The translations under genes were made by a program, and so were the position numbers. From NCBI GenBank assembly GCA_965237565.1, contig OZ250145.1:182860-246859 (forward strand): a DNA stretch of 64,000 bases, given 5' to 3'. Within the stretch, counting starts at the first letter, position 1. Every line of letters begins with the position of its first letter. Positions 5,648 to 25,868 of the stretch are shown here, one piece after another. Under the pieces are notes generated by a model, which made no database searches, had not been told where the DNA came from, and saw only the letters and a list, made by a program, of their open reading frames with translations. The stretch comes from Bdellovibrionales bacterium. GTDB taxonomy: Bacteria > Bdellovibrionota > Bdellovibrionia > Bdellovibrionales > UBA1609.

Positions 5648-5867
5648 CTGTATTTAAAAAACTAGAAGGCAGTAGCAAGCTGTAGTTTTGTTCAAAAAAC
5701 AAGGGCCGGTGGCAAACTATGGTTTTGTTTGAAAAAACAGAAGATAGTGAAGGCTGATATGAAAATTTCCATTTTAACACGAAGCAGTAATTTCCCTCTT
5801 TTTGGCAAGTAAGTTTTCACAATTTGTGTTATAGAAAAGCCCGCAAATGTAAGAAAGAGAGGACGCT

Positions 5868-7226: not shown

Positions 7227-7352
7227 AAGTAAGCCTCATCCAAATTCTAAGATATATTCTCCATTTCACTATATTTTATCGAACAAGGGCAAGATTTTTC
7301 ATATATAGCTTTTATTTTGCAGACCTTTTACTGTATTCTCGGTCACACAAAA

Positions 7353-8735: not shown

Positions 8736-8953
8736 ATATCCTCTCCAATTACTTTTAAAATATCCATCCACTTTCGAACAAGCCAACCAGACTCTTCTGG
8801 AGAAGAACCTATCTGAACGATTTCCTTAATGAGAAAAGCCAATGCAACACAAGCAACTAGGAGAAGGGCGTACTCAAGGATAACGACTCCTTTCTGAGTT
8901 TTGAAAACACTCTTTTTTGGAACCAACTTTTGAATGAAAAAAAGTAATTTCAT
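8732..8953 (-). CDS. Flp/Fap-type (type IVb) prepilin candidate
   Basis: 73 aa. A basic leader ends in KG followed by VVILEY, which fits the G/XXXXEY Flp processing motif. Next comes a hydrophobic helix ALLLVACVALAFLI. The predicted mature part is ~51 aa. Confidence 0.4.
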   Translation of the reverse strand: MKLLFFIQKLVPKKSVFKTQKGVVILEYALLLVACVALAFLIKEIVQIGSSPEESGWLVRKWMDILKVIGEDI

Positions 8954-8978
8954 TTCCCATTAGCCTCTTTCATCTGCC

Positions 8979-9632
8979 TTAGCCTTCTTGGAGAATCTGA
9001 ATAGCTCTTCGGTAGTTTGGATGCCGAAATATAAAATTTCCTGATACCAAAATATCTGCTTCTTTTAAATGAGACAATGTTTGTTCATTCACTCCTCCGT
9101 CTATCTCAATGAGTACATCCAATTTCCTTTTCAGCAATTCTAAGCGAAGAGGAGAAATTTTAGAAGCAGATTCCTTTAAAAAAGACTGGCCACTAAATCC
9201 AGGCTCCACAGTCATAATCAAAACCAGATCTACCCATTCTAAAAAAGGAAATAGAGATTGCACACTTGTTGAGGGCTTTAGCGTGATACCTGTTCGCACA
9301 TTCATCTTATGAATTTGTTTCAAAACATCCTCTATATTCTTGGTAGACTCAATATGAATGGTCAGAGTGTCAGCTCCCGCCAGAGCAAAAGCGTCAATCA
9401 TCTTTTCTGGTTGTTCCACCATCAGATGAACATCCAAGGGAAGAACACTAATCTTTTTTAGACTATGCATGATGGGAATCCCCATTGTTAAATTGGGAAC
9501 GAAATGACCATCCATAACATCCACGTGGATCCAATCGGCCCCTGCTGCTTCTACGGCTCGTACTTCGTCCCCCAACCGAGAAAAATCAGCTGACAAAATA
9601 CTTGCCGAAACTTTATGTTTTTTATTCGCCAA
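8979..9632 (-). CDS. rpe: Ribulose-phosphate 3-epimerase
   Basis: SILSADFSRLGDEV...HVDVMDGHFVPNLTMG motifs. TTG start overlaps the fmt stop. Confidence 0.95.
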   Translation of the reverse strand: MANKKHKVSASILSADFSRLGDEVRAVEAAGADWIHVDVMDGHFVPNLTMGIPIMHSLKKISVLPLDVHLMVEQPEKMIDAFALAGADTLTIHIESTKNIEDVLKQIHKMNVRTGITLKPSTSVQSLFPFLEWVDLVLIMTVEPGFSGQSFLKESASKISPLRLELLKRKLDVLIEIDGGVNEQTLSHLKEADILVSGNFIFRHPNYRRAIQILQEG

Positions 9633-10572
9633 AATAAGATCCTTTTTTCAAACCATAACCTCTCACATACTCTCCTGCTGAAAGAATACCTTTTGATTCC
9701 GGTTGCACTTGAACAATTTTAATCAACGAGTCCTGACAAGCTACTTGAAAAAAATCAGGTCCTATCTCCACTATCTCCGCAGGTGAATGAAAAGATGAAG
9801 ATTGATGAGGTGAATATTCTGCCTTGTGAATTCTCAACCTTTTCTTCTTAAAAAAAGTGTAAGATTGGGGACCAAGAGCGAAGGCTCGGATCTGGTTAAA
9901 TATTTGCAAGCCCGATTGGGACCATACAATGAGATTTTCTTTTTTATCAATCTTTCGAGCGTAGCTTGTCTGACTTTCATCTTGAGGAGTTGGAGACAAT
10001 TCATTTTGCATATAGAGAATCAAATCATCCATCATCTCTGGAATGAGAGAAATCATTTTGTGTAACAAGAAAATAGCATCCATTTCATCTTCTATCTGAA
10101 AACGGCGGGAACCGATAATCGACCCAGCATCCAATTTTTCTTTCACCACTTGCAAACTCATTCCTGTTTCTTTGTCACCAGCCAGAAGAACTCTTTGAAT
10201 CGGTGCCGCTCCTCTCCAACGAGGGAGTAGACTAGCATGAAAATTTAAGACTCTGTTGGGAAACAATTGCAAAAAATCAATGGGAAGTATTTTTCCATAA
10301 GAAAGCATGACGACCCAACGGGCTCCCAAACACCTAATGGTCTGAAGAAATTCTTTTGCTTTTAGAGAGAGAGGAGTAAAAACTGGCAAACCCAGTTCCT
10401 TCGCTCTCAGAGCTACGGGAGAGTCACATTTCGATAAACCTCTTCCTGGAGATCGAATCGCCTGTGTTACCACTCCTTTTATCTCAAAGGCTGAATGGGC
10501 AAGTAATGCATGGAAACATTCTAGTGAAATCAACTCCGTCCCCAAAAACAAAATAGGGAATACAGAACTCAC
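9622..10572 (-). CDS. fmt: Methionyl-tRNA formyltransferase
   Basis: LNFHASLLPRWRGAAPIQR signature. Operon with def (4-nt overlap). Confidence 0.95.
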   Translation of the reverse strand: MSSVFPILFLGTELISLECFHALLAHSAFEIKGVVTQAIRSPGRGLSKCDSPVALRAKELGLPVFTPLSLKAKEFLQTIRCLGARWVVMLSYGKILPIDFLQLFPNRVLNFHASLLPRWRGAAPIQRVLLAGDKETGMSLQVVKEKLDAGSIIGSRRFQIEDEMDAIFLLHKMISLIPEMMDDLILYMQNELSPTPQDESQTSYARKIDKKENLIVWSQSGLQIFNQIRAFALGPQSYTFFKKKRLRIHKAEYSPHQSSSFHSPAEIVEIGPDFFQVACQDSLIKIVQVQPESKGILSAGEYVRGYGLKKGSYFGE

Positions 10573-11272: not shown

Positions 11273-12619
11273 TTGACTACGCATAATAAAAACAGTTTAT
11301 CTTATGTTATGGGTCTTGAAATTGTTCTATACAGTTCTTCTCCGGTTGTTCAAAAAATTTTTTCTCATGTGCTTTATCATTATGGCCCAAAAGTTCATCG
11401 AGTGGATGAAGCTACGAAGCTAATCAAAAAAATAGAGCATAAACGACCAGATATCATATTTATAGAACGCTCAAATGAAGCTTCCAAGGACAAAGCCTTG
11501 AACGCTCAAATAAAGAAAAAAGAAGGATTTGATAAAATTCCTATTGTTTTGCTATCTCGGGACAAGTTGGAAACAAAAGAATGGCCAGCTGGATTGGCAC
11601 AGGGGTTTTTAAAAAAACCAATTGAAGCTAGCCAATTACGAGAAATCATAAATCGTTTTGTCCCAAAAACAAAAGTCAACATTTTGGGAAGATATCTTAT
11701 TTTTCCAACAAAATTTGGAGAGGATCAAAATGTAGAAGAAGCAGAACAAAGCTCCGCTCAAGAGACTGAAATGGCTGCCGACGTCATGCAAGATGAGGTG
11801 GCTGCCGACGTCATGCAAGATGAGGTGGCTGTCGACGTCATGAGTGAAACAGAAGAAGCAGAACAAAGCTCCGCTCAAGAAACTGAAATGGCTGCCGACG
11901 TCATACAAGATGAGATGGCTATCGACATTATGGGTGAAACAGAAAAATGGAAACAGACTTCCGCTAAAGATGCAAAGGATCAAGAGGAACCAAAACCACA
12001 AGACGAAGTGACGATTAACGTAATGGTTGAAGCAAAAGAAGAAAGCTCTGTTCAAGAAACAAAGAGTCAAGTGCTTGCTAACACTGAGGTAAAAACAAAA
12101 GAATCACCATCCCCTCAAGAAGTAAAACTCACCACCTTAGGCTCTGAACCGGAATCCACTGTTGATTCCGATATGGAGAACGAAGAGAAAACCAGTGTAA
12201 AGAATGAAAAGAAGAAACTCCAAGAAAAACTAAAATCGCTGGATTTACAGTCATCAGAAAATGTAAAAAAACAAGAAGAAATGGGTGCCAAAAATTTTTA
12301 CGAAGAAAGTTTTGTTGAAGCAAATACAAAAAAAAGTTCTCGCTTTCTAGCAGATAAACATACGAATGTAAAATTTTTAGATTCAATGGGAAAAGACAAA
12401 GACACTCCAAAACAAATTGATACCCAAGAACTCAATGCGCAAATTACAAAGAAAACTGAAGAACAATTGGCTCAATTTTTTGCAAAGAAAGGTGAAAAAT
12501 TGATTCAAAGAGCTATTGAAAAAACTGTGTGGCAAGTGGTTCCAGAACTAGCAAAACAGATAATAAAAAAAGAAATTGATACCCTTGTAAAAGAAGAAGA
12601 AGATATCAACAACGAATGA
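11273..12619 (+). CDS. Pseudo-receiver (CheY-like) domain protein with acidic tandem repeats and a conserved-looking C-terminal helix
   Basis: The N-terminal ~125 aa follow the receiver pattern, but the DD pair is SS (IVLYSSSP) and the phospho-acceptor is Glu (DIIFIERS). Ser (LLSRD) and Lys (LKKPI) are retained. The middle is Glu/Asp/Gln-rich with repeats. The start is uncertain (TTG 11273 or ATG 11309). Confidence 0.55.
   Translation: MTTHNKNSLSYVMGLEIVLYSSSPVVQKIFSHVLYHYGPKVHRVDEATKLIKKIEHKRPDIIFIERSNEASKDKALNAQIKKKEGFDKIPIVLLSRDKLETKEWPAGLAQGFLKKPIEASQLREIINRFVPKTKVNILGRYLIFPTKFGEDQNVEEAEQSSAQETEMAADVMQDEVAADVMQDEVAVDVMSETEEAEQSSAQETEMAADVIQDEMAIDIMGETEKWKQTSAKDAKDQEEPKPQDEVTINVMVEAKEESSVQETKSQVLANTEVKTKESPSPQEVKLTTLGSEPESTVDSDMENEEKTSVKNEKKKLQEKLKSLDLQSSENVKKQEEMGAKNFYEESFVEANTKKSSRFLADKHTNVKFLDSMGKDKDTPKQIDTQELNAQITKKTEEQLAQFFAKKGEKLIQRAIEKTVWQVVPELAKQIIKKEIDTLVKEEEDINNE
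11735..11945 (+). repeat. Nested in-frame coding repeats (117-bp unit x ~1.8; internal perfect 27-bp x 2 at 11774-11827)
   Basis: EEAEQSSAQETEMAADV(M/I)QDE... occurs twice, 117 bp apart. gctgccgacgtcatgcaagatgaggtg is duplicated perfectly in tandem. Confidence 0.9.
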
Positions 12620-13236
12620 TTTATAGAATGTCGGTGATTGCTAACTGGACAAAAAATTGGGCGAAAAGAGAGAAAAAGGCTTTCCTCTATTACAAACAGA
12701 CGAGTAGCACCAACGATAAAGCAAAGGAATTATCTGATTCGATAAACGGACGAAAAGAGTTATTGATCGCTGAACTTCAAACAAAAGGACGTGGAAGAAG
12801 AAACAAAGAATGGCTCAACAGTGATATGATGTTGAGTTGGAACTACTATTTGAGTCAAGCTCCGCAACTCAAAACTACTGTCGTCATGGGGCTAGCGCTT
12901 CATTCTGCACTAAAAAAAATTTGGCCTGCCAACAATTATAAAATAAAAATACCGAATGATATATATATCAAAAATAAAAAAATGGCTGGAATCCTTGTAG
13001 AGGTCATCAACAAAGGTCCCAAACATCACCAACTTATCATTGGCGTAGGAATGAACGTTTTTTGCCATCCAAAAACTTTGGATTCAAGAAACTCCTTTAC
13101 CCACCTGCAAGAAGAATTACGAAAAAGAATTACTGAAAAAAATTGGGCTGATTTTTTAAATGAGTGGTCTCATCAGACAAAAAAAAGGCTGCCACTTTGT
13201 CTCAAAAGACGGACTTCGCCGATCGTGAATTTATGA
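12616..13236 (+). CDS. birA: Biotin--[acetyl-CoA-carboxylase] ligase (class I, no HTH)
   Basis: SSTND...ELQTKGRGRRNKEW (GRGRRxxxW biotin-binding loop). ATGA overlap with the upstream gene. Confidence 0.8.
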   Translation: MIYRMSVIANWTKNWAKREKKAFLYYKQTSSTNDKAKELSDSINGRKELLIAELQTKGRGRRNKEWLNSDMMLSWNYYLSQAPQLKTTVVMGLALHSALKKIWPANNYKIKIPNDIYIKNKKMAGILVEVINKGPKHHQLIIGVGMNVFCHPKTLDSRNSFTHLQEELRKRITEKNWADFLNEWSHQTKKRLPLCLKRRTSPIVNL

Positions 13237-16200
13237 ACCCAAAGGAATTTCAGGTTTCGTTCTTTCAAAAATCATTTGAAAAATAAGATCATTTTGTGCC
13301 TTTTTTTCCTCCTTGTCTGAGCACGGAACTCTTGCTTCTTCTTCTGCTTCGAAGCATTTGTTGTTTTCGTTGTATTTCATGATGCGTATTGCAATCAATG
13401 AATCCTTTGAAGCTGGAATGGCAATTCTATTTCTCACTTCATCATATAAAACAATAGGATTGGAAATGAAAAATTTTAAAAAAGCATCAGCAATTTTTGC
13501 TTCTTCGTCACGTCTTTTTTCTTCTGGGCTGAGTTCTCCTTCAACAACTGTCTCAAAATTCTTTTCAGAATACTGGTTCATAAATTCCTCATACAAAGTT
13601 TGAACGATCGGCAATCGATATTCATATGATCTATGTCTTTTCACGATTGTATCAATGATTTCTCCAAGACTTACAATGTTAACCACATGAAAGAACAGAG
13701 TGTTTGTGTTGTCATTTTTCAATTTTTGAACAAATTGTGGACTTGCCCCTAGAATACGACGGAAATTTATTGCAAGCAAATATGAAAAGCCCATACGTCT
13801 TTGGGGACGATTATTTTGAAAGGATAGAGTTCTGGGCATTGTAACTCCTAAATCCTCATCCAAATATGGGTTCAAATCCATTCCAAGCAATATATATTCT
13901 TCCATTCTGTTATGAATTTCGCTGTAAAAATCTGGCTCCGCCAATAATAGAGGAGCAAAAATACGTAAACCAAAAGGAAAATAAGCATACTTAAAGCTAT
14001 CAGAAATGGGAGAGAGTTCATCGATGGAATCTTCTTCTGTCTGTGGTAAAAAGTAAGACCTTTCTCTATTGAGGTAACCCACCTCTGTAAACAATTCTCC
14101 CATGTTGTTTTCTTCGGCCCATTTTTTGGCTAAGCTTGATTCACAATCGACCAGAATTTTTCTATTCTGATAAAGTGAGATGTGTTCAGAAAAATCCCTA
14201 TCAATGAGCAACTCTTCTACATCACTAGCAGGCCAAATGACTTGATCAACTATTTTTTCAAAATCCACAGATTGATAAAAACCATCTGCTTTTCTATATA
14301 TGCAATATTTAATAGGAAGAAAAAATATCTCTTTAAAAAAATCAAATATTGGCTCTCTTATTTCATAGTATTGTTTAAAGTCAGAATTATTACGAGCCTC
14401 CTCTAGTAACAAATCTTTAAAAGACGTCACAGATTCTTCATCAAATGGCGAATAATCATGTACTTTTCTTCCTTCCGATCTTAAAAGAGGATTCAGATAA
14501 TCTTCTTGCCACAATTTATATAGGTACTGTATGGCATACAAGCCAAAAAAATTAGTAACCTGTGCTGTGCGACTTCTATCATAGCGTCTTCTGGTTATCT
14601 CTATTGCATTTTTATCTGAGAGAATTGCCATTTGAGCAATCTCTAGCGGAGTTGCTCCATAGTCACCCTTGATACAAATGTTTCCATTTTTGGTAACATC
14701 ACTACCATCTCGGTAGTACGTGCCTCCACATACCTTATAATGTCTCACTGTAACGTTCTTATCCGCTATTGTTTCCTCAATACTTTTTTGTGGTTGCTGA
14801 GGATCCGCATCAGCTCCATCAGATACTTCTAAAAACCTTCCATCAACCAATTCTATCTTATTAAAGTAGAGAAAACGAATCGCAGCGATATCATATTTAC
14901 CTGGGACTGTAAGAATTGGATAACCTTCATGAACATAATCCATTAAAGAAGAAAATTTGGGAGGTTCAGAGAAAAACTTATTTATCATCATTTTATCGGC
15001 ATTTTTTCCAAAAATTTTTGTGATCTCATCGTAGCTTTTGTAATAGTTGTCACTATCCACAGAAGCTGAAAAAACGTGCCTCAAACCGGCACTATGAAAC
15101 ATTTCATGTATTATTGTGCGAATAATACCAGCCTCAGCCAATTTGTAGCCACACTCTTTCACAACTACCTTATCATTTAGAGGAGCCATGTTGGGATGCA
15201 GTGGTTCCAAATCAAATGCATGAGAATGTTGTCCTTTTGTTTCATCAATAAACGAAATAACTTCTGGACACTTCACTTCTATACTCTTCTCAAAAAAATC
15301 ACTCACTCCAGAAGAACCGGGCCAAAGCCAAGCAGTTGGATAAACACGAAATCGTATGTATTGTCGAACCAAATTAATGTAGTTATTAGTCAGATTGCTA
15401 ATCCAAACATTAGCTGTTCCTGAAATGACCTCTCCTGTTTGCGGATTATTAATATTGGGACCGTATCCAAGCCTCGAAATTTGGCCTTTTTGATAATTGG
15501 CAACCATCATGTTAATAATGTTGTAGCGAATATCACCTAGTTCTTGATCTTGGCTCTCATTTAACTTGATAGTTATTTTTTTGTTTCCTTCAGAAGCAAG
15601 TAATTCAAACACTGAATTGAAATAGTGAACTGCCGTACGAGCAAAACCACGTATCCGCTCATCCTTGGGAGTTTGCTTAGAAAAATACCACTCAATCACT
15701 TCAACATTTGGATTGAATCGAACAGAACGATAGAACTTTGTTTTGTCCAACTCTGTATGATCCATAGAATCTAGATAAACAGTTCTGGAAGTATGAAAAA
15801 TGGGAAAAAACGTAGTGCTATCTATTTCGAACCATTTTTTCTCGACATAATTACTATGACTTGGAACTTTTCTGAAAGCCAATTTGATTCGATTAACTCC
15901 CTCATCCACTCTATTCTCAAAGGTTAGACTCAGGTAATCGTTATCTATCACGAGATTCTCAAACTCAAGACGCCGATCTTCAAAAGAATGTCTTAGTTCT
16001 GACAATTGATCAAAATTGATTCTAAAATAGGACCTTTCAATAACCTCTTTTGTGCTCGTTTTCCTGTCACTGAAAGCACTCCACTGATCCCTTGAATCAC
16101 GACTTTCTTCATAATCTTCCCAACTGCCAGGAATAAATATCGCAGCCTTTTTATCTTCCTTCCTAATATCACTACTCGCATCTAAAGCTTCTAGGCCTCC

Positions 16201-17073
16201 AGCCACTTTTCTAAAATTCACCAGAGAAGCTCTCACTGGCAACTGTTCACCAGCATATCCTTTAGCTGAAGTAATAAGGGTCTTCGCAAAAAACCAATTC
16301 CCTGAAAAAAAATTAGCTGGAAACACATTCTTTTTATCCAAGTAAGAAAACACTACTTTATTCGTGAACAAGCGCACATATCGAGCAGTCTTGTTTGATA
16401 TTGCCGTACATTTTGGACGAAATTGCCCAGTTTTCTCATCATGAATATTTTTTTGTTGCTCTTTAGTACAATATTCGACCCTATAGCCAACAAGTGGAGT
16501 CGCCATCATTTGATCATCCAATTTGATTCCTACAGGTCTTTCATCGTAAGGAATTTTGGCTGTTTCAGCGACTTTATAAAAAATTAGATAATTTCCCTTT
16601 AATTGCGGAACAATGTAGTAGACTTGATTAGGAGATCCTTTGAATTTCACTTTACCAAGCAAATTCTTCAACAACTTTTGATCTTTCTTTTCTGTCTCTT
16701 CACTGAAAATTTCATAATTTAAAATGTATTGCTGGTCGGCAAATGAAAGCTCAGAACCTAGTTGGGCTCTTTGCCGACTTGTAGAAAAAGGGACTAATTC
16801 ACCTTGCGAAGTTGTTTTAATCTTGAGGATTTTCCCATCTAAGAAAGCTTTGTCCAAAGATTGTTTTAAATCGCTCGGTCCGGAGGAAAGAATAGAATCA
16901 AAATTTTTGAATCGCTCAATCTTCTCTATGTTATCAGCTGTTCCTTGAACAAAAGTCTCTACTCCAAGATTGTTATCACTCGGTCTCACACAAGAAATGA
17001 ATAAAAATAAGCAACAAAATTTCGTTATGAAAATACGAAATAGCAAAGGAAAGCTCATAGCAAATATATCCAA
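13231..17073 (-). CDS. Giant lipoprotein zinc metalloprotease, metzincin type (paralog 1; DUF4953/DUF5117-like)
   Basis: Signal with lipobox-like LFISC. HEMFHSAGLRH fits HExxHxxGxxH, and SSLMDY (Met-turn) follows ~50 aa downstream. Collinear with the neighbouring paralog. Confidence 0.75.
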   Translation of the reverse strand: MDIFAMSFPLLFRIFITKFCCLFLFISCVRPSDNNLGVETFVQGTADNIEKIERFKNFDSILSSGPSDLKQSLDKAFLDGKILKIKTTSQGELVPFSTSRQRAQLGSELSFADQQYILNYEIFSEETEKKDQKLLKNLLGKVKFKGSPNQVYYIVPQLKGNYLIFYKVAETAKIPYDERPVGIKLDDQMMATPLVGYRVEYCTKEQQKNIHDEKTGQFRPKCTAISNKTARYVRLFTNKVVFSYLDKKNVFPANFFSGNWFFAKTLITSAKGYAGEQLPVRASLVNFRKVAGGLEALDASSDIRKEDKKAAIFIPGSWEDYEESRDSRDQWSAFSDRKTSTKEVIERSYFRINFDQLSELRHSFEDRRLEFENLVIDNDYLSLTFENRVDEGVNRIKLAFRKVPSHSNYVEKKWFEIDSTTFFPIFHTSRTVYLDSMDHTELDKTKFYRSVRFNPNVEVIEWYFSKQTPKDERIRGFARTAVHYFNSVFELLASEGNKKITIKLNESQDQELGDIRYNIINMMVANYQKGQISRLGYGPNINNPQTGEVISGTANVWISNLTNNYINLVRQYIRFRVYPTAWLWPGSSGVSDFFEKSIEVKCPEVISFIDETKGQHSHAFDLEPLHPNMAPLNDKVVVKECGYKLAEAGIIRTIIHEMFHSAGLRHVFSASVDSDNYYKSYDEITKIFGKNADKMMINKFFSEPPKFSSLMDYVHEGYPILTVPGKYDIAAIRFLYFNKIELVDGRFLEVSDGADADPQQPQKSIEETIADKNVTVRHYKVCGGTYYRDGSDVTKNGNICIKGDYGATPLEIAQMAILSDKNAIEITRRRYDRSRTAQVTNFFGLYAIQYLYKLWQEDYLNPLLRSEGRKVHDYSPFDEESVTSFKDLLLEEARNNSDFKQYYEIREPIFDFFKEIFFLPIKYCIYRKADGFYQSVDFEKIVDQVIWPASDVEELLIDRDFSEHISLYQNRKILVDCESSLAKKWAEENNMGELFTEVGYLNRERSYFLPQTEEDSIDELSPISDSFKYAYFPFGLRIFAPLLLAEPDFYSEIHNRMEEYILLGMDLNPYLDEDLGVTMPRTLSFQNNRPQRRMGFSYLLAINFRRILGASPQFVQKLKNDNTNTLFFHVVNIVSLGEIIDTIVKRHRSYEYRLPIVQTLYEEFMNQYSEKNFETVVEGELSPEEKRRDEEAKIADAFLKFFISNPIVLYDEVRNRIAIPASKDSLIAIRIMKYNENNKCFEAEEEARVPCSDKEEKKAQNDLIFQMIFERTKPEIPLGS

Positions 17074-17276
17074 TGATTCATGGCAAACGCACCTGTCAGT
17101 GATCGTGTACCATGGTAATATTAGGAGAACAAATATTCAGTGAGAAAAAAATCTAAATAAAAGGTGGAGGCAATAGTCTAGGTGCAGCTGGAAGTGGTCA
17201 AACAATGTAGATTTCTAATCATTTTTTGCAACCAAAATATCTTAGTAAATCTTAAATTTCGTTCCAGATGGGATGC

Positions 17277-20200
17277 TCAATTTTTTAAAGGAACTGTTCG
17301 TCGCTTGATCACTTGATATAAAAATTCATTATGACCAATTTTATCCAGCCTATCTGGGCAAGGAATGTGCTCATCCTCTTCTTTTTTCAAACAAGTTTTG
17401 TTTTCATTATATTTTTTAATCACCTCAGCAGTGTATCCATTGATTGCATATGGAACCAAAATCGACTCCATCCTTTGCGTAGTTACACTTGAAGGAACTT
17501 GAAAAATCTCTGGTTGAAAAAGAAAAAAATCAGCAAATTCTTTCTGCTGGTCTTGATCAAGAAATCTTTGATACAAATCATATAAAGAGGGTAACTTTTC
17601 TTTATATAAGACCGAATATTCTTCAACTCGCTCAATATAATCGGACAAAAAATCAATAGAAATACCAACAATTTTACTGTCTGCATTGAGATCTTTATAT
17701 TCTTTCGATTGAAAGTCCTTTAGATTTTGCACTCGACTAATCTCTTCGTGGAACAATAACTTACTTCTCGCATTTGCCAATCTAAGGTGCGTCCGAGTGA
17801 CTGCATAAGAAAACGCTCTTGGGATTTCCATATCTAAATCAAGATAGAGATTTAAATCTTCACCCTCTAATACATATTCCCTTATACTGTGGCTTGTTTC
17901 CTTATAAAATTGAGGCTCCTTCATTAATATCAAATTAAATCCATTTCTCACAACACTACTAAGAAGTATATAATTGAAAGGAGTGCCTTCATCAAGGGTA
18001 TCAGTATTCCTCTCTTTTAAAAAATATCTCCTACTTTGCCCAAAATAACCAACTTCTGTAAACAGTTCCCCCATATTCATCCGATTCGCCCAATCCTCCA
18101 CAGCGTCGGATTGGCAATCAATCAATACCTTTCTGCTATTTTCACTTAAATCCGGAATGATTTGATCAATAATCCTGTCAATACTCACAGCCTTATAAGA
18201 ACCATCGACTCTCTTGTATATACAATGCTTAGTGGGAAGAAAAAGTAATTCCTTATAGAAATTAAATAAGGGTTCTCTAATTGCATAATATTGTGCGAAT
18301 AGAGAGTCAGGATCCTGTTCTACTTTTCTCAATAATAGATTACGAAATTCATCTATATCCTGTTCGTCGTAAGGAGAATAATCATAGATGTTCTTGCTTT
18401 GGCCCCTCAACAAGGGACCCAGATATCCTGGCTGCCACTTTAGATGAAGATATTCAAGAATACTCAAAAAGGTAAGGAAGATGTTTTCATTTTTAAGAGC
18501 CAGATCATCATAGCGTCTAGTAAAAAGTAGCATCCCATTCTTTGCAGAGCGAATAAGATTTTGCACCACCTCTAAAGGGGTACTACCATAATCAAATGCA
18601 ATACAAATATGTTGACCTTCCCTTATACCATCTGATCCGGAAAAACCACCGCATATCTTGTATTTTTTTAGAGAAACATTTTTCTTTTTTATAATCTCCT
18701 CAATACTTTTTTGTGGATTCTGAGGATCCGCATCGGCTCCATCGGGAATTTTCAAAAATGTACCATCGCTCAATTCCACCTTGTTAAAGTAGAGAAAGCG
18801 TAAAAAAGCAATATCGTACTTACCCGGAACCGTGAGCGAGGGGTATTGAGTATAACCATAATCCATCAGTGAGGAAAATTTGGGAGGCTGATCTGGATTG
18901 GCATATATCATTGGTTCAACGGAAGATTTTCCAAAAATTTTCACTATCTCACCATAGTTTTTATAATAATTCTTATCATCCTCAGAACTGGAAAAAACAT
19001 GCCGGTCCCCGAAAGCATGCATCATTTCATGCATCGTAATACTGAGTATCTGAGACATGGACAAACGAACGGCACAATCATTTACAATCTCCCTATCCTC
19101 TAATGGATCCATGGAAGGATGCAAACGATTGCCCTTTCCCCTCTGGCTCACAATAAACTCCATCACTTCTGGGCACTTTACTTTTATACTTTTCTCAAAA
19201 AAATCACTCACTCCAGAAGAACCAGGCCAGACCCAAGCTGGGGGATAGATTCGAAGCCGTACATAATTACGAGTGAGAGCAACGAGATTGTCGATGATCT
19301 CACTGACCCACACGTTAGCTGTTCCTGAAATCACTTCTCCTGTCCTAGGATTTGCTACATTGGGGCCATATCCAATTAAAAAACCAGATCCTTTTTTGTA
19401 CTCAGTCTCCAACATGTTAATAATATTATAACGAATATCACCCAGTTCTTTCTCTTCGCTTTCGTCTAGCTTAATGAGGATCTTCTGATCCCCTTCTCCT
19501 CTAGCCTCTTGAAAGGCCAAATTGATATAGTGAACAGCTTTACGAGCAAGCTCACGAACCCACTCCTTCTTAGAAGTCTGAGTGGAAAAATACCACTTGA
19601 TCACATTCGCTTTCGGATCAAAACGAACCGCACGCAAAAACTTTTCGTGATCCTCCTTCGTGTGTTCTCCAAATCCCACGAAAGCAATTCTCTTGATGCC
19701 GAACATGGGAAAATACAAAGTACTATCTTCTTCAAACCATTTCTTTTCGACATAGTTGCTCTGACTAGACACTCTCTTAAAAGCTAGTTTGATCCATTCA
19801 AAACCATTTGCTCCACTAGATTGATAAGTGAAACTAAAGTAACCATCTGAAACAGTAGAACGTACAAATTCACCAAGTCCTCCCTCTTTATCAGCAAATT
19901 CATGCAAATTCAGCTTAATATAGGGTCGACTGAGAGTCTCTCCCTTCTCGACTTTCCTCTCCCCCAGATGATTCCAATGATCTATTGAATCTCGATTCTG
20001 CTCGTAGGCTTCCCACTCGCCATAAAAAGTTCCCCCAACTTGTCGATCCTCCTCCATTAGATCACTACTCGCATCCACCATGACCAAACCATCTATTGTC
20101 TTCCTAAATTTTACAAAATCCACCCTTGTGGGAGGTTGATAACCTATGAGATTCGAAGGACTCTTGATCAAAGTCCTTGTATAAAGCCACTCTCCCTTAA

Positions 20201-20975
20201 AAAAAACAGCCGAAAACAAATCCTTCTTATCCAAGTAAGAAAAAATAAGACGTTTGTCGTCTAGGTACAAATACTCAGCCGACTCTTTCGATATTCCAGC
20301 ACATTTTGGACGTATCCTCCCTGTCACTTCATCATGAACATTCCTCTCTGATTCTTTCACACAATATTTTACCTCATAACCAAGCAAGGGAGTCGCCATC
20401 ATATTTCCCAACTTGATTCCCATAGGTTTCTCATCATAGGGGATTTTATTTAACTCACCAACTCTGTATAGCACTAAATAATCCCCCTCTAAACGAGGAG
20501 CAATATAGTATTCTTCATTCGAAAATCCTTTGAAATTCTCTACCTTCCCAAGTAAACTCGCCAATTTTTTTTGAGTGTTTGTTTTAACGTCCAAAATCTC
20601 GTAATTCAAAATGACAGGCTGATTTGCAAAAGATAAATCTGGATCCAATTTCGATTTCTCTACGCTGTTAGAAAAACGAAAAGATTCTCCCCCCTCAGAA
20701 GAGGTTTTGATCTTGATGATCTTTCCTTCTGATACAGCTTTGTCCAATAATTGCTTAGCATTGAGAGATTGTTTTCCCAACTCGGGAGGAAAAATCAAAT
20801 CAAAACTTTTAAATTGATCAATATCTTCTATACCGTCATTACTGCCCGGAATCCAATGCTCACCAGCTTTTCCACTGCTAGTAGTCGGCTCCCTTACACA
20901 GGACACAAATAAAAGCAGAGTACAAAAACATGTCGCTGAAACTCGATAGAAATATTTAAAAAGCATAACTGGCAC
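17277..20975 (-). CDS. Giant lipoprotein zinc metalloprotease, metzincin type (paralog 2)
   Basis: Lipobox-like LLFVSC. HEMMHAFGDRH plus SSLMDY. Blocks shared with paralog 1: GDIRYNIINM, TGEVISGTANVW, WPGSSGVSDFFEKSI, LTVPGKYDIA, DGADADPQxPQKSIEE, MGELFTEVGY. Confidence 0.75.
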   Translation of the reverse strand: MPVMLFKYFYRVSATCFCTLLLFVSCVREPTTSSGKAGEHWIPGSNDGIEDIDQFKSFDLIFPPELGKQSLNAKQLLDKAVSEGKIIKIKTSSEGGESFRFSNSVEKSKLDPDLSFANQPVILNYEILDVKTNTQKKLASLLGKVENFKGFSNEEYYIAPRLEGDYLVLYRVGELNKIPYDEKPMGIKLGNMMATPLLGYEVKYCVKESERNVHDEVTGRIRPKCAGISKESAEYLYLDDKRLIFSYLDKKDLFSAVFFKGEWLYTRTLIKSPSNLIGYQPPTRVDFVKFRKTIDGLVMVDASSDLMEEDRQVGGTFYGEWEAYEQNRDSIDHWNHLGERKVEKGETLSRPYIKLNLHEFADKEGGLGEFVRSTVSDGYFSFTYQSSGANGFEWIKLAFKRVSSQSNYVEKKWFEEDSTLYFPMFGIKRIAFVGFGEHTKEDHEKFLRAVRFDPKANVIKWYFSTQTSKKEWVRELARKAVHYINLAFQEARGEGDQKILIKLDESEEKELGDIRYNIINMLETEYKKGSGFLIGYGPNVANPRTGEVISGTANVWVSEIIDNLVALTRNYVRLRIYPPAWVWPGSSGVSDFFEKSIKVKCPEVMEFIVSQRGKGNRLHPSMDPLEDREIVNDCAVRLSMSQILSITMHEMMHAFGDRHVFSSSEDDKNYYKNYGEIVKIFGKSSVEPMIYANPDQPPKFSSLMDYGYTQYPSLTVPGKYDIAFLRFLYFNKVELSDGTFLKIPDGADADPQNPQKSIEEIIKKKNVSLKKYKICGGFSGSDGIREGQHICIAFDYGSTPLEVVQNLIRSAKNGMLLFTRRYDDLALKNENIFLTFLSILEYLHLKWQPGYLGPLLRGQSKNIYDYSPYDEQDIDEFRNLLLRKVEQDPDSLFAQYYAIREPLFNFYKELLFLPTKHCIYKRVDGSYKAVSIDRIIDQIIPDLSENSRKVLIDCQSDAVEDWANRMNMGELFTEVGYFGQSRRYFLKERNTDTLDEGTPFNYILLSSVVRNGFNLILMKEPQFYKETSHSIREYVLEGEDLNLYLDLDMEIPRAFSYAVTRTHLRLANARSKLLFHEEISRVQNLKDFQSKEYKDLNADSKIVGISIDFLSDYIERVEEYSVLYKEKLPSLYDLYQRFLDQDQQKEFADFFLFQPEIFQVPSSVTTQRMESILVPYAINGYTAEVIKKYNENKTCLKKEEDEHIPCPDRLDKIGHNEFLYQVIKRRTVPLKN

Positions 20976-21900
20976 CTAGACCCAAAAAAGTCCGATCTGG
21001 GCTAAACACACCAATTTTTTGTGCCATGCTATGAGATCTCAACAGATGATCTCCCCAGTTTAGACTGAACGTCAATCTCATTTTCTGGCTCAGTTTCCAA
21101 CCTGTTGAAGCTCCCAAGTAAGCAACGTGAAAAAGAGTCCCTATCCGATTCACCAAAAATCGATAACTCCCATAAAAAAACACATCAGGGACAAGAGGCC
21201 ATTCGAAATAAGAGAGACGAACACCCAATTGATTAAAGATATTTAAAAAATTATTATAATCGGTTCCCAACTTATTAGCTGTCTTGTAACGATGCCAATC
21301 CAGCTGCAAGGAATGGTTGGATATGAGAGATAAGCGAAGGCCCAAACGAGAAAAAAAACCATAAAAATTTACCAAAGAAGATCCAATGCCCGTCATGAGA
21401 GAACTTTTGTAAGAGGAACTAGAAATAGGAATCACAAAATAGAGGGAAGCTTCACTGGAGAAAATACCCGTCTTTTTTATAGGTTTAGAAAACCCTAGAT
21501 GAAGATCACCAAAACATAAAACTGGGTTCCAACAAGATTCTTTGATGGATTGCTTGCTACTATAAACTGGCCTCGTATAAGAAAAGCTCGCAAACACTTG
21601 GACTGGGTTGAAACGAAAAGAGGGTGAAACTCGGTCCAAAGAATAATAAAGGCTGATGTCACTATCAAAATACAGAGTATCTGCCCAACCATTTGAGTAA
21701 TAAGAATTAAGAAAATTGTCTCCACTTACACGCAAATTACGGGTGAATCTTGTTTTAATTGTCCCATGAATCCAAGAATCACCTGAGTCATTTGTCAGTT
21801 TGTGCGACAGGGCAGGATTCAATATAGTGCCCAACTGAGCCCAAGAGAAGAAAGGTAATACAAGCAAGCAGAACAAGAAAGTCCAGATTCTTTGTAACAT
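20956..21900 (-). CDS. Outer-membrane beta-barrel protein (hypothetical), overlapping the start of metzincin paralog 2
   Basis: ATG 21900 gives the signal peptide MLQRIWTFLFCLLVLPFFSWAQ. Amphipathic beta pattern throughout and a C-terminal ...GASYAF. The stop overlaps the downstream start by 11-20 nt. Confidence 0.5.
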   Translation of the reverse strand: MLQRIWTFLFCLLVLPFFSWAQLGTILNPALSHKLTNDSGDSWIHGTIKTRFTRNLRVSGDNFLNSYYSNGWADTLYFDSDISLYYSLDRVSPSFRFNPVQVFASFSYTRPVYSSKQSIKESCWNPVLCFGDLHLGFSKPIKKTGIFSSEASLYFVIPISSSSYKSSLMTGIGSSLVNFYGFFSRLGLRLSLISNHSLQLDWHRYKTANKLGTDYNNFLNIFNQLGVRLSYFEWPLVPDVFFYGSYRFLVNRIGTLFHVAYLGASTGWKLSQKMRLTFSLNWGDHLLRSHSMAQKIGVFSPDRTFLGLGASYAF

Positions 21901-22269
21901 GATACTATCCCTGCTGTTAAACCACCCTTTTATATTAAGAACCGAAAAGCGTACGAAGAAACGGAGTAACACGCAATAACATACTAGTCTATTCTAGTAT
22001 GAAAAAAGGGGGTTGACCATTCTGAATTCACCTCACCCTTGGTCGAGTTTGTGTAAAAATTTCACAGAAAATAAAGAAATAAGGAAATTGTAACCTTCTT
22101 TGAATATCCTTCCAGAATCATTACATGTCTTTTCTCATCTAATGGAAAATACAAGGAATAAGGAGAGAGAAATCTATAATGTAAGATTGTTACATAAAGT
22201 GATATTAAAGTTACTATGCAAAAAAAAGTGACTTATCTAAGGGTAAGAATTTCCATTATATATCTTGCA

Positions 22270-24912
22270 TTATCCAATGAAATTGTCAGCAGACGAGACC
22301 CTCTTTTCGAGAGCTCTTTTTAAAAATGTAGCCGTTTGACTTCGTTTGGATCGTGCAACTTTTTCGGGCGAACCAATCGCTACCACTTCTCCTCCGCTAA
22401 AGCCTCCTCCAGGTCCCAGATCAATCAAATAGTCACAAGACTTAATGACATCCATCTGGTGTTCAATGACAATCACTGTGCTTCCCTTTTTTGTTAACTT
22501 TCTTAAAACAAAAATTAGCTGTTTTACGTCTTCAAAATGCAAACCTGTCGTGGGTTCATCCAGAATATAAAGAGTGCGATTCGTATTTTTTTTCGATAGC
22601 TCGCGAGTGAGTTTTATTCTTTGTGCCTCTCCCCCAGATAAAGTCATTGAATTTTGCCCCAAGTTTAAGTAGCCAAGCCCTACCTCTTTCAATAAATCCA
22701 ACTGTCGCTTCATTCTCGAATGATGAGCAAAAAACTGGCTAGCTTCTGAAATATTCATACCTAGGATTTCATATATATTTTTTCTTTTGTACTGCACATG
22801 TAAAATCTCATTGGAATAACGGCGCCCTTGGCAAACATCACATAGCAAAGTAGCTGAAGCGAGAAAAAACATCTCTTGTTTAATTTGGCCAGTCCCTGAA
22901 CAGGTTTCGCAACGGCCTCCTTTCACATTGAAACTAAAGTGCCCCGGGGCGTATCCGCGAACTCTTGCTAATGGGATCTGAGACATGAGACTGCGAATCA
23001 TGGACATAATTCCTACATAAGTAGCGGGTATAGATCGAGGAGTTCTGCCAATTGGTTTTTGATTCACAGACACCACTTTGTCCAAAAACTCTAGACCCTT
23101 CACTGCTCCAAATTTAGCTGGTTGAACGAAGGAATACTGATGCAAATGAAGCATCAAAGCCTTGTAAATCGTCTCAATCACTAGTGTGCTTTTCCCGCTT
23201 CCAGACACGCCCGTTACGCCTACCAGACAACCCAATGGAATCTGCACATTGATATTTTTTAAATTATTTCCAGCAGCTCCTTTGATCTCTAAAAAATTCC
23301 CCGTGCCTTTACTTCTGGAAGCAGGTAAAGGGATGATTTTTTTCCCAGACAGATACTGTCCCGTTAGAGACTTTTTTGTCCGCATAACTTTTTTTACACT
23401 GCCTTCTACGATAACAGATCCCCCGCATTTACCAGCTAAGGGCCCTATATCAATGATATGATCTGCTGAAACAATCGTCTTCTCATCATGTTCAACTACC
23501 AAAACTGTATTTCCACGATCTCGTATTTCAAATAAAATTTTCAACAAACGATGATGATCAAACGGATGCAGACCTACACTCGGCTCATCCAATGTGTACA
23601 ACACACCAATAAGGGGAGAAGAAATTTGAGACATCAAACGAGTTCTTTGGGCTTCCCCTCCAGAGAGAGTATAGGTGGGACGATCCAAACTTAAGTAAGA
23701 CAGGCCAATTTTTTTTAACACACTCAAATCAAAACAAACTTTCTCTAAAATTTTGTCAGCCACCAACTTGTATCTTTCTGGAAAGAAAAGCCCAGAACAA
23801 AACTGACTGAGTTCTTCTATGCTCATATGAGACAATTCGGCGATATTTTTTTTTGCTATTTTTACACTTAGAGAAAAAGGTTTGAGTCTTGCTCCTTTGC
23901 AGACAGAGCATTGTATATAATTTGCTCCATAGTATTCTCCCTCTCGTTCGACAAAATATTCTTCACCACCTTCCTGTACAAAATAACCAAGGCCATTGCA
24001 CTCCGTACAAGCCCCCTTTGGATTGTTGAAGCTAAACATTTTTGGCTCCAATTTTGGAAATCCTTTTGAACAAACAGGACAAGTGGCATGAAGAGAGTAA
24101 TAATCTATCCCTTGGCTTTTGATCCACTCAATTTTTACTTCTCCTCCTGTAAAATTACTTGCCTTTTCCAGACTTTCTTTTAATCGAACTTTCGAATTGG
24201 ATTCAACAACCAAACGATCCACTAAGACATCTATAAAATGATCTTTTCTCTTAGAAAGTTTTTCCCTGTAAGGCAGTTCCACCCATTTTCCATTGATTCT
24301 CACACGATCGTAGCCGGCAGATAAAAGCAGGTCGAATTCCTTCAAAAACTCCCCCTTTTTTCCTTTGGCAATAGGAGCCAATACAGAAAATTGCACTCCT
24401 TTTTTCTTTCTCATTATCCCTTCTACCATCCGATCAATGGAAAAAGACTCCAAAGCTTCACCATGTTCTGTGCAATAAGGAGTACCCAAGCGAGCAAATA
24501 GGAGTCTCAAATAATCGTAAACTTCTGTTACCGTTCCAACCGTAGAACGCAAACTAGAAGTCAGAGATCTTTGATCAATAGCTATGCAAGCAGAAAGCCC
24601 GGAAATGGAATCCAATTCCGGTTTTTTTATTTTATCCATAAAAAATCGCGCGTAGGATGAAAGACTTTCCACATATCTTCTCTGTCCTTCAGCATAGATC
24701 GTATCGAAAACGAGGGAAGATTTCCCACTGCCACTGAGACCTGTCACGACGGTGATCTGATGACGAGGAATGAAAGTATCAATGGATTTTAGATTGTTTT
24801 CTCTAGCTCCAATGACAACAATCCCTTTAGAAGTAAAATCTGGTTTCGCATTGCGAGATTTTGAAGGCTTCAGACCTGCCACCCTCCATCCACCTGTTTG
24901 GTTAAGTGACAA
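22270..24912 (-). CDS. uvrA: Excinuclease ABC subunit A
   Basis: GLSGSGKSSLVFDTIYAEGQRRYVESLS, two ABC modules (LSGGEAQR twice, second Walker A GVSGSGKST) and Cys-pair zinc modules. The TTG start is uncertain and overlaps the folE2 stop. Confidence 0.93.
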   Translation of the reverse strand: MSLNQTGGWRVAGLKPSKSRNAKPDFTSKGIVVIGARENNLKSIDTFIPRHQITVVTGLSGSGKSSLVFDTIYAEGQRRYVESLSSYARFFMDKIKKPELDSISGLSACIAIDQRSLTSSLRSTVGTVTEVYDYLRLLFARLGTPYCTEHGEALESFSIDRMVEGIMRKKKGVQFSVLAPIAKGKKGEFLKEFDLLLSAGYDRVRINGKWVELPYREKLSKRKDHFIDVLVDRLVVESNSKVRLKESLEKASNFTGGEVKIEWIKSQGIDYYSLHATCPVCSKGFPKLEPKMFSFNNPKGACTECNGLGYFVQEGGEEYFVEREGEYYGANYIQCSVCKGARLKPFSLSVKIAKKNIAELSHMSIEELSQFCSGLFFPERYKLVADKILEKVCFDLSVLKKIGLSYLSLDRPTYTLSGGEAQRTRLMSQISSPLIGVLYTLDEPSVGLHPFDHHRLLKILFEIRDRGNTVLVVEHDEKTIVSADHIIDIGPLAGKCGGSVIVEGSVKKVMRTKKSLTGQYLSGKKIIPLPASRSKGTGNFLEIKGAAGNNLKNINVQIPLGCLVGVTGVSGSGKSTLVIETIYKALMLHLHQYSFVQPAKFGAVKGLEFLDKVVSVNQKPIGRTPRSIPATYVGIMSMIRSLMSQIPLARVRGYAPGHFSFNVKGGRCETCSGTGQIKQEMFFLASATLLCDVCQGRRYSNEILHVQYKRKNIYEILGMNISEASQFFAHHSRMKRQLDLLKEVGLGYLNLGQNSMTLSGGEAQRIKLTRELSKKNTNRTLYILDEPTTGLHFEDVKQLIFVLRKLTKKGSTVIVIEHQMDVIKSCDYLIDLGPGGGFSGGEVVAIGSPEKVARSKRSQTATFLKRALEKRVSSADNFIG

Positions 24913-25802
24913 CTTACGTCAAAGGGATGCAAACTTTCCAGATGCTTAACTTGAATGTGAAAATCCTCAATCCAACTTTTTTGATTCAAAAACTGCTTGA
25001 TTCGACGAGCAGCATCTTCTGAAAACATCAAATTTTGGCTGTTGAGCTTAGCAAACTCCTTTTCATCCTCTTTTTTCACAGCTGTTTGCACGGGAGTGCC
25101 CAATATTTCTTCTACCCCATTAACCAAGCTCAAAAAATCTTCCTTTTCCTCTTTCACTTTCAATTTCAAGAAGGCACAACTTTTTTGAGCATGGGGAGTG
25201 GCAGCGATGGAGTTTTCTTTTCCTAGCCAATCCACAATCTTTTGACGATCTAACTGATTGGAATCAAAATCCGTTTGGAATTTTTCTTGAAGCACTATTC
25301 TCGTTAAACTCGCAGAGCATGGGCAGGTGGAACTGTATATAACCGTCAATCCCATGATCAAATCCATAGATTGACCCTTATTGAGTTTGCCTTCATAAAA
25401 AACAGGATAAAAACGCCAGCCTTCTAAAGAATCGGTCTTGAGAGCTCGTCTTTTTACCGGCTCCTTCCAAGCGATTTTCATATATGCACAATCAGAAATG
25501 CCTTCTTGAGATTTGATCAGTTGTTTGAGTAATTCTTTCAATACACCCAAATTGAGAACATTTGAGCCCAGAAGGTTATGAAGAGATAGATAGATACGAG
25601 ACATGTGAATTCCTCTTAGATTCTCTTCACTTAGAGAAACCATCGCTGTAATCTGAGAGTGCAAGTCTAGAATTTTGGATCCTTGTTGCACCCGGATCGG
25701 CATCTCTAACTTTTCTATTCCCACCAAATCAATAGCCCCACATACGGAGGGTTCTTGTTTGGCAACATCTTCTTCAATTGCTTTTATGCTGGACTGATCC
25801 AC
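24870..25802 (-). CDS. folE2: GTP cyclohydrolase FolE2 (type IB)
   Basis: ~310 aa with IHMSRIY and YSSTCPCSA motifs, characteristic of the COG1469/FolE2 family (recalled from memory). GTG start. Confidence 0.75.
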   Translation of the reverse strand: MDQSSIKAIEEDVAKQEPSVCGAIDLVGIEKLEMPIRVQQGSKILDLHSQITAMVSLSEENLRGIHMSRIYLSLHNLLGSNVLNLGVLKELLKQLIKSQEGISDCAYMKIAWKEPVKRRALKTDSLEGWRFYPVFYEGKLNKGQSMDLIMGLTVIYSSTCPCSASLTRIVLQEKFQTDFDSNQLDRQKIVDWLGKENSIAATPHAQKSCAFLKLKVKEEKEDFLSLVNGVEEILGTPVQTAVKKEDEKEFAKLNSQNLMFSEDAARRIKQFLNQKSWIEDFHIQVKHLESLHPFDVSCHLTKQVDGGWQV

Positions 25803-25868
25803 TGCAAATCTACACCCATATTTTGGATTTTTTCAAAAACAATAGCTTCTAGCGAGGCGGTCTTTTTG

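Follow-up and report, generated by a model that had tools for sequence, protein, structure and literature searches.

Why does a gene for a small, putative outer-membrane beta-barrel protein stand directly in front of genes for two very large, paralogous lipoprotein proteases? The locus that raises this question lies in a 64,000-nucleotide stretch of a Bdellovibrionales genome (GTDB lineage UBA1609; assembly GCA_965237565.1, contig OZ250145.1, positions 182,860 to 246,859), which we refer to as the window. All three genes of the module are on its minus strand, where their open reading frames (ORFs) occupy positions 13231-21972 and follow one another in the direction of transcription as barrel, giant A, and giant B. 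We found that the barrel gene is a dedicated, conserved, same-strand, and usually abutting partner gene of the protease. The barrel family and its conserved pairing with the giants appear to be undescribed.

Barrel and protease genes are conserved as a pair in two phyla

Searches with tblastn initially placed a barrel homologue next to a giant in eight loci, and a profile of the barrels from those eight loci recovered more giant-adjacent homologues in Bdellovibrionota, Photobacterium, and Ferrimonas. With iteration, the profile identified 76 barrel ORFs among the 900 ORFs of the window and 80 related loci (numbered below with the prefix L). Same-strand pairs with a giant account for 71 of these 76 ORFs, namely, the window pair and 70 pairs distributed over 68 of the 80 loci. 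The median spacing within a pair is ∼1 nt. Of the 71 pairs, 62 have the barrel upstream of the giant and 9 have it downstream. The pairs span two phyla, with representatives in Bdellovibrionota, Vibrio, Photobacterium, Aliivibrio, and Ferrimonas. These neighborhoods bear out the first-pass annotation of this DNA, which had proposed a dedicated barrel in synteny with the proteases. Loci without a barrel mostly stop at a contig end. Drift of the barrel profile under iteration is countered both by the high proportion of matches that pair with giants and by an independent hhalign comparison, which aligned window-clade with gammaproteobacterial barrels over 274 columns (probability, 98.7%; E = 2e-16).

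The canonical order is barrel followed by giant, with the reverse order in L001-L004, L007, L009, and L012. Where two giants are present, L002 has the order giant-giant-barrel and the window has barrel-giant-giant. Adjacency thus outlasts rearrangement of gene order. The two partners also share their history: similarity matrices of barrels and giants are correlated (Spearman coefficient, 0.59), a value reached in 0 of 500 permutations. In L015 and L023, which each hold two tandem pairs, three of the four pairs have the nearest relatives of both genes in one and the same other locus. Pairs are thereby shown to duplicate, diverge, and travel as units, and we consider it very probable that giant and barrel are functionally coupled.

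The window itself offers a comparison at a shared genomic site. An mscS-folE2-uvrA block (window positions 22270-26807) also precedes a giant-barrel pair in two Bdellovibrionales metagenome-assembled genomes (MAGs; L003 and L004). The uvrA, folE2, and mscS products are 61 to 74% identical between these genomes and the window, marking them as related lineages, whereas at the same site the giants are 35 to 38% identical and the barrels 31 to 42% identical, and the internal gene order of the module differs. The module therefore diverges much faster than its neighbors.

One pair is found in a cultured and well-studied organism. In Aliivibrio fischeri ES114, it consists of VF_A0689, annotated as a “hypothetical protein,” and VF_A0690, which carries the UniProt name “EcxA zinc-binding domain-containing protein.” Literature searches on DUF4953, VF_A0689, and VF_A0690 found no paper.

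The giants, the barrel protein, and their genes

Giants A and B align end to end with 577 identities over 1,291 positions (45%; E = 0), far above chance. They are nearer to each other (about 45 to 47%) than to any other sequence found (≤41%), so their duplication is lineage specific, as far as sampling goes. Every sequence feature listed in the first-pass annotation is present, including the collinear blocks that the two proteins share. Both carry the F-[IV]-S-C signals that it had pointed out, in the contexts LLFVSC (A) and LFLFISC (B), each after a hydrophobic N-terminus (Table 1). In nearly all relatives of full length, canonical lipoboxes of the form L-[AST]-[GAS]-C align with this Cys. 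Of 77 full-length relatives, a regular expression detected a Cys right after the signal-peptide core in 59, and inspection by eye revealed one in 17 of the remaining 18. The HEMxHxxGxRH and SSLMDY motifs are likewise in place in both giants, with SSLMDY beginning 42 residues beyond the third zinc-motif His. After the lipid Cys, mature A and B each have exactly ten Cys, forming five conserved, collinear pairs (205/225, 601/634, 775/791, 918/954, and 1195/1206 in A). Three of these pairs fall in a C-terminal region in which, as the annotation had said, no domain is recognized: in giant A it has no Pfam or PDB match. This region is conserved within the family, with its last ∼200 profile positions matched by the nearer clade only.

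Assignment to a protease family required the more distant relatives. No Pfam model matched A or B at E ≤ 0.1, so that PF16313, PF17148, and PF17162, the models that the first-pass annotation had named for both giants, found neither of them. The sole NCBIfam match was TIGR03952 to residues 642-675 of giant B (13.8 bits, compared with a cutoff of 208). PDB searches with the single sequence and with the whole alignment gave no significant match for the giants. In A5, an alignment and profile of the catalytic core that includes distant relatives, the zinc-motif residues His, Glu, His, Gly, and His are all invariant, as are Ser, Met, and Tyr of the Met-turn. Among the PDB matches listed for this profile there were only metzincins, with marginal scores. 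The best were the astacin-family protein HCE-1 and serralysin (E = 1.5e-3), and the alignment spans the zinc motif, the SxMxY Met-turn, and the DIAA helix. With both motifs intact in A and B, this marginal match agrees with the earlier reading of the giants as metzincins.

A relationship to PF16313 (DUF4953) is supported transitively. Seven distant homologues of 1,139 to 1,363 aa, one of them an end-truncated ORF, were checked against Pfam. At 25 to 29% identity, these proteins of Bacteriovorax, Bdellovibrio, Photobacterium, and Aliivibrio all passed the PF16313 threshold (25.1 to 66.5 bits versus a cutoff of 24.2; E, 1e-5 to 3e-18), covering about positions 3-169 of the 316 in the model. A profile restricted to the window clade reaches the same homologues at E values of 1e-28 to 1e-121. 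Of the proposed resemblance to the DUF4953/DUF5117 family, then, the DUF4953 part holds through distant homologues only, with direct membership of A and B not found. The other part fails: PF17148 (DUF5117) and PF17162 (DUF5118) matched neither A, B, nor any of the seven homologues. The family-wide motif is HE-[LIM]-GHN-x-GL-x-HNF … SS-[IV]-MDY, of which HEM-x-H-x-x-G-x-RHVFSAS … FSSLMDY is the window-clade variant.

An AlphaFold2 (AF2) model of giant A (mean predicted local distance difference test [pLDDT] score, 62) suggests three parts: a low-confidence, beta-rich N-terminal part; a catalytic part with block-mean pLDDT values of 75 to 93 in places; and a mostly helical C-terminal part of ∼450 residues, with block means mostly of 55 to 90 and some dips. 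The first-pass annotation had looked to AlphaFold and Foldseek for the folds of these proteins, and no match at E ≤ 0.001 was found for the barrel model or for the whole model of giant A, for which profragilysin-3 appeared at E = 0.19. Residues ∼35-425 of giant A (19700-20870; pLDDT, 30 to 60) gave weak Foldseek matches to lipocalins (E = 0.056; probability, 0.8), TbpB, and a factor H binding protein (fHbp) complex, a lead only. Lipocalin, TbpB, and fHbp are all 8-stranded-barrel lipoprotein folds, and matches at this level (E ≥ 0.056) were not taken as evidence.

We conclude that the giants are, with high likelihood, exported lipoprotein zinc peptidases. Judged by sequence, they are divergent members of a moderately large, unstudied, PF16313-related family of giant lipoprotein metzincins, whose public annotations read “zinc-dependent metalloprotease,” “EcxA zinc-binding domain-containing protein,” and, once, “M66 family metalloprotease.” A word-indexed search of 5.8 billion proteins returned 13 relatives of the giants, all metagenomic, one of which carries PF16313 at 27% identity. 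It returned 4 relatives of the barrel, and the remaining barrels came from the genome scan and from profile iteration over the fetched loci. Scanning one genome per species yielded 105 relatives of the giants. Full-length relatives at 34 to 37% identity are confined to MAGs of Bdellovibrionales and Oligoflexia. Relatives at 23 to 32% are spread over many Bdellovibrionota, among them the cultured Bacteriovorax sp. BSW11_IV, and Vibrio, Photobacterium, Aliivibrio, Ferrimonas, and Motilimonas have matches of 26 to 33% over the catalytic region. When 1.84 billion cluster representatives were searched exhaustively with a profile, 1,643 matched at E ≤ 1e-3, of which 405 reached E ≤ 1e-30; most are 1,200 to 1,450 aa long. 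The closest relatives come from Bdellovibrionales MAGs with small chromosomes (1.55 Mb in L003, up to 2.0 Mb), and the contig that holds the window measures 1.33 Mb.

The family also includes altered and decaying members. Catalytic residues have been lost from three close relatives, all full length, with altered residues in place of HExxHxxGxxH: the second copy in L002 (4474-8313; motif site, LNSMLRSFGLKD), the giant of L006 (331-4779; LQALHQSLGFRH), and P0009 (L082, 8001-11816; LHNMLKSFGQNP). Two of the three are tandem neighbors of another copy. Giants A and B of the window are both intact, whereas these three relatives look like pseudoenzymes kept for a noncatalytic role. P0009 is the second of three giants in a tandem array (L082, 3784-14230), the first of which is broken into at least five frames and still has HEMLHGFASRH, and the third of which ends at the contig end. 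The array suggests birth-and-death turnover of the family. Longer members of 1,600 to 1,900 aa occur in L044 (6627-12020), L046 (6972-12683), L048 (6654-12389), L013 (1-5616), L015 (12887-17782), and L049 (2467-7407). Four of these six have no adjacent barrel, and their extra ∼500 residues gave no match to the barrel profile. In Vibrio parahaemolyticus (NZ_CP141289.1; L083), a giant at 6004-10122, annotated by NCBI as “M66 family metalloprotease,” is preceded by a barrel frame of only 198 aa (5083-5679) that has no entry in the (incomplete) gene table and may be the remains of a barrel gene next to a giant that is intact.

The barrel protein has a mature length of ∼290 aa, and its hydrophobic N-terminus aligns with those of all members of its family. 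Its first strand begins ∼20 residues after the predicted signal peptide. The intervening residues 23-45 (21766-21834) have the window-clade consensus G-S-I-x-D-P-x-L-S and could form a periplasmic contact or plug element. In alignment A7, which covers Bdellovibrionota and Gammaproteobacteria, P159 and S164 are invariant and S161 is conserved in at least 90% of members. Other family-wide motifs are N-F-H-x-Y-x-T, L-F-D near the C-terminus, and the terminal Y-x-F, and window-clade barrels additionally have a C-W-x4-C-F pair. The C-terminal residue is aromatic in most members and most commonly Phe. The AF2 secondary structure, from a model built from four homologues (pLDDT, 44.7), is all-beta with 11 long strands, at low confidence. 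Based on the aromatic C-termini, the alternating amphipathic strand pattern of the sequence, and the all-beta prediction, we read the protein as a probable outer-membrane barrel. These three features fit a barrel of about 12 to 14 strands, and the predictions give about 11 or 12.

Database matches to the barrel are few. The barrel and 16 relatives had no match in Pfam (at E ≤ 1 to 5) or NCBIfam, and a PDB profile search with the family returned only OmpX, at E = 0.16. The top Foldseek matches were nearly all outer-membrane barrels, the best at E = 9.5e-3 on a model of pLDDT 44.7, and these are indicative only. They include maltoporin, the beta-domains of the autotransporters EspP, Hbp, and BrkA, FapF, a COG4313 channel, the KdgM-family porin VhGalP, and OmpG.

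The three same-strand genes, the overlap of the barrel stop with the start of A, and the 203-nt gap between the ORFs of A and B agree with the coordinates first annotated. The frames are open beyond the ATG starts of the database calls: the barrel frame extends to 338 aa from a GTG (20956-21972), that of giant A to 1,232 aa from GTG 20975 (17277-20975), and that of giant B to 1,280 aa from TTG 17073 (13231-17073). The barrel stop codon (20956-20958) overlaps the start of giant A by 11 to 20 nt, and the A-B ORF gap (17074-17276) measures 218 nt if taken to the ATG of giant B. A scan of that longer gap (17059-17276) found no minus-strand terminator-like or promoter-like site. Because of the barrel/A overlap and the absence of a terminator-like site in the A-B gap, co-transcription of the three genes is plausible. 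The module lies directly downstream of uvrA, with folE2 and an mscS-family gene upstream of uvrA, and the noncoding interval before the barrel gene contains a weak sigma-70-like match (22019-21991), a lead only; promoter-like matches in this interval (21901-22269) were not more numerous than in shuffled controls. At the other end, a lipB-like gene on the plus strand (12616-13236) converges on the 3′ end of giant B and overlaps it by 6 nt (13231-13236), leaving no space for a terminator between the two. An Rfam search of the window found two tRNAs and nothing else.

Table 1. Positions of the module genes and of their sequence features in the window
Feature	Position	Strand	Description
Barrel gene	20956..21900	-	314 aa from ATG 21900 (MLQRIW...); database gene call P0014
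Barrel signal peptide	21835..21900	-	MLQRIWTFLFCLLVLPFFSWA, followed by Q; predicted type I cleavage after SWA (FFSWA before, QLG after the cut), inferred from sequence
Barrel P-x-S-x-x-S motif	21412..21432	-	IPISSSS; alignment A7
Barrel C-terminus	20959..20973	-	ASYAF (GASYAF end); outer-membrane-protein-type ending with terminal Phe (Y-x-F)
Giant A	17277..20966	-	1229 aa from ATG 20966 (database call); putative lipoprotein metzincin
Giant A lipobox-like site	20898..20909	-	FVSC; Cys26 predicted to be lipidated; position +2, Val
Giant A zinc-binding motif	18999..19031	-	HEMMHAFGDRH, residues 649-659; aligns to HExxHxxGxxH of astacins and serralysins
Giant A Met-turn	18858..18875	-	SSLMDY, residues 701-706; probable Met-turn, then Tyr
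Giant A C-terminal region	17280..18653	-	∼residues 775-1232; mostly helical prediction, three conserved Cys pairs
Giant B	13231..17058	-	1275 aa from ATG 17058 (database call); paralogue of giant A
Giant B lipobox-like site	16990..17001	-	FISC; Cys28
Giant B zinc-binding motif	15076..15108	-	HEMFHSAGLRH, residues 656-666
Giant B Met-turn	14935..14952	-	SSLMDY, residues 708-713; probable Met-turn
A-B intergenic gap	17059..17276	-	Scanned for terminator and promoter sites
Noncoding interval, uvrA to barrel gene	21901..22269	-	369 nt; likely module promoter region

What the barrel may do for its protease

We propose that the module is an envelope protein-degradation cassette in which a barrel and a giant lipid-anchored metzincin are cognate partners and the protease works at the cell surface, a reading that we hold to be evenly balanced. 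In this genome, the protease gene of the cassette is duplicated. According to the proposal, the protease would be lipidated and then delivered to the outer membrane by a Lol-type route, where it would associate with its own barrel, which would carry it through the outer membrane or hold it at the outer face. The surface enzyme would cut extracellular (or prey or host) proteins to peptides, and oligopeptide transporters would take these up. Giants A and B would share one barrel and probably differ in substrate preference.

Gene neighborhoods bear on the last step, peptide uptake. An Opp-type importer directly adjoins the pair, on the same strand, in 13 Photobacterium, Vibrio, and related loci. 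It comprises two BPD_transp_1 permeases, an SBP_bac_5 binding protein, and two ABC ATPases with oligo_HPY domains (Opp/Dpp type). Examples are L050 (7604-13597), L051, L054-L056, L058, and L060, with the importer upstream in L062, L063, and L074-L076. In two Bdellovibrionales MAGs (L044, 12021-15673, and L048), a barrel-less giant of 1,800 to 1,900 aa, SBP_bac_5, and permeases stand in a row as a partial set. This adjacency ties the protease family to peptide supply and fits a nutritional or degradative role, the latter as first suggested for the module.

That the barrel is a translocon or an anchor, rather than a peptide channel, is a view to which we give even chances at best. It is favored because pairs are inherited and diverge as units and because both partners evolve fast, and on this view the barrel may represent a novel type of partner dedicated to an enzyme at the cell surface.

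Several observations weigh against the surface-display proposal. Six loci with full flanks have a giant and no detectable barrel (L010, L035, L044, L046, L048, and L049), which means that a barrel is not universally required. The barrel model is poor, and neither the barrel nor the giant finds a confident structural counterpart in Foldseek. A and B themselves match none of the curated protease models of Pfam and NCBIfam significantly, and the Phe at position −3 of both lipoboxes is unusual. Co-transcription of A and B is putative and would have to span 218 nt. The surface exposure of the giants is likewise putative, and they could face the periplasm. Gammaproteobacteria, moreover, export large lipoprotein and secreted metalloproteases by type II secretion, a route that would make a dedicated translocon unnecessary.

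The main rival gives the barrel a different task. It could be a substrate-specific diffusion channel, KdgM- or OmpG-like, for the peptides that the protease releases, in a pathway leading from protease through barrel to periplasmic binding protein and ABC importer. The Opp-type importers next to the pairs of Photobacterium and Vibrio fit such a channel equally well, the weak Foldseek matches include the small specific channels maltoporin, the COG4313 channel, VhGalP, and OmpG, and ∼290 residues with roughly 12 strands would suit a small channel. We nevertheless think the channel unlikely, on the following grounds. Paralogous proteases tend to carry their own barrel and to diverge in step with it, which is less expected of a generic pore, and at the shared uvrA site the barrels have evolved as fast as the proteases (31 to 42% identity, compared with 61 to 74% for flanking genes). 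In addition, the two Bdellovibrionales loci that combine a giant with Opp genes do so without a barrel.

A second rival moves the giants to the inner side of the membrane, as periplasm-facing outer-membrane lipoproteins that act in the quality control or processing of envelope proteins or in the digestion of imported material, with the barrel as their substrate, regulator, or docking site. By default, Lol sorting leaves a lipoprotein in the inner leaflet of the outer membrane, a periplasmic location would suit the Cys pairs just as well, and the surface location of the giants is itself only predicted. We regard this arrangement as improbable all the same. Housekeeping envelope proteases are normally conserved and single copy, whereas the giants diverge much faster than their neighbors and are multicopy within a genome, with the catalytic motif degenerate in some copies. 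Their ∼1,250 aa with large accessory domains are atypical of envelope quality-control proteases, and the association with Opp importers suggests a part in nutrient supply.

Two further alternatives have very little in their favor. That barrel and giants are neighbors by chance or through shared regulation, uncoupled in function, with the giants leaving the cell by, for example, type II secretion, would accommodate the six barrel-less loci and the V. parahaemolyticus barrel remnant beside an intact giant; it is very hard to reconcile with 71 adjacent same-strand pairs in two phyla at a median gap of ∼1 nt, with adjacency kept through changes of order (barrel downstream in 9 pairs), and with tandem pairs inherited as units. 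That the window giants are mainly binding proteins, receptors or adhesins rather than enzymes, would be in keeping with the full-length yet catalytically degenerate relatives (L002 second copy, L006, and P0009) and is just as improbable, given that both window copies keep the His-Glu-x-x-His-x-x-Gly-x-x-His and Met-turn motifs.

Returning to surface display, its wider interest lies in how few routes are known. Surface export of lipoproteins has been described for a small number of systems, including Slam, the export signals of Bacteroidota, LptDE-linked sorting, and type II secretion. More tentatively, and with somewhat more doubt than confidence, we suggest that each barrel, unrelated to Slam or to BamA/TamA-type proteins, serves its own ∼1,300-aa lipoprotein protease. 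If so, Bdellovibrionota and marine Gammaproteobacteria would have an unrecognized route for displaying very large enzymes. Surface-exposed proteases of this kind would be candidates for the degradation of prey or host proteins in small-genome Bdellovibrionales. The tightly conserved two-gene cassette, with a barrel that falls outside Pfam and NCBIfam models, is shared by predatory or host-associated Bdellovibrionota and by marine bacteria that are well studied (Aliivibrio fischeri, Vibrio harveyi, and Photobacterium). As A. fischeri ES114 is genetically tractable, its VF_A0689/VF_A0690 pair makes the choice between translocon and channel directly testable.

Comparison with known proteases and lipoprotein export systems

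Among proteases, the best PDB profile matches were to astacins (M12A) and serralysins (M10B), and in both families, as in the giants, a Tyr follows the Met-turn Met. The giants differ from them in size, lipid anchor, accessory domains, and genomic context, and no Pfam model of either family matched. The M66 family, which includes StcE of Escherichia coli O157 and TagA of Vibrio cholerae, consists of large secreted or lipoprotein mucinases, and the HE-x-GHN-x-GL-x-H motif of most members of the giant family resembles that of StcE. Membership was rejected: A and B had no PF10462 (M66) match, and the matches of homologues were weak and below threshold (16.9 to 18.2 bits versus 20.6), extending over ∼35 of 306 positions around the motif. 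TIGR03952 (metzin_BF0631) of Bacteroides describes a zinc-dependent lipoprotein metzincin, like the giants, in a model of 351 positions; membership was rejected here as well, with giant B scoring far below the cutoff. We know of no partner barrel for StcE or TagA, nor of one for the TIGR03952 family.

The closest named domain is PF16313, also called DUF4953, “Met-zincin,” or “EcxA zinc-binding domain,” which is the domain of the metalloprotease A subunit of the EcxAB/CfxAB AB5 toxins. In both PF16313 and the giants, the extended zinc motif precedes a Met-turn-like S-x-M-D-Y. EcxA is a toxin A subunit that associates with a B pentamer, whereas the family of the giants consists of ∼1,250- to 1,400-aa lipoproteins that have a partner barrel and carry large regions at the N- and C-terminal ends. 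EcxA has been described as a putative metzincin (PMC11610972).

Two ways in which a barrel can be joined to an exported protein were considered and rejected. An autotransporter-like fusion is contradicted by the giants themselves, none of which contains a match to the barrel profile, the members of 1,600 to 1,900 aa included. Two-partner secretion would call for an extra (POTRA) domain, for which the barrel protein has no space, and it has no Pfam match.

The nearest parallel in genetic organization is Slam, the analogy that the first-pass annotation had loosely drawn. Slam proteins combine a TPR domain at the N-terminus with a 14-stranded DUF560 barrel, and their substrates, which were identified through gene adjacency, end in an 8-stranded barrel (PMC5449769). 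Membership in this system was rejected for the module: DUF560 matched neither the barrel nor its 16 relatives, the barrel protein has no space for a TPR domain, and the giants are predicted to end in helices rather than in an 8-stranded barrel. Judged by sequence, all the features that define Slam thus fail except adjacency, and the module appears Slam-like in genetic logic only, the part of the analogy that stands. In both systems, an outer-membrane barrel gene adjoins a lipoprotein gene, often with one barrel per lipoprotein gene, and this adjacency is much tighter in the module described here, at 68 of 80 related loci, than the ∼52% seen for Slam.

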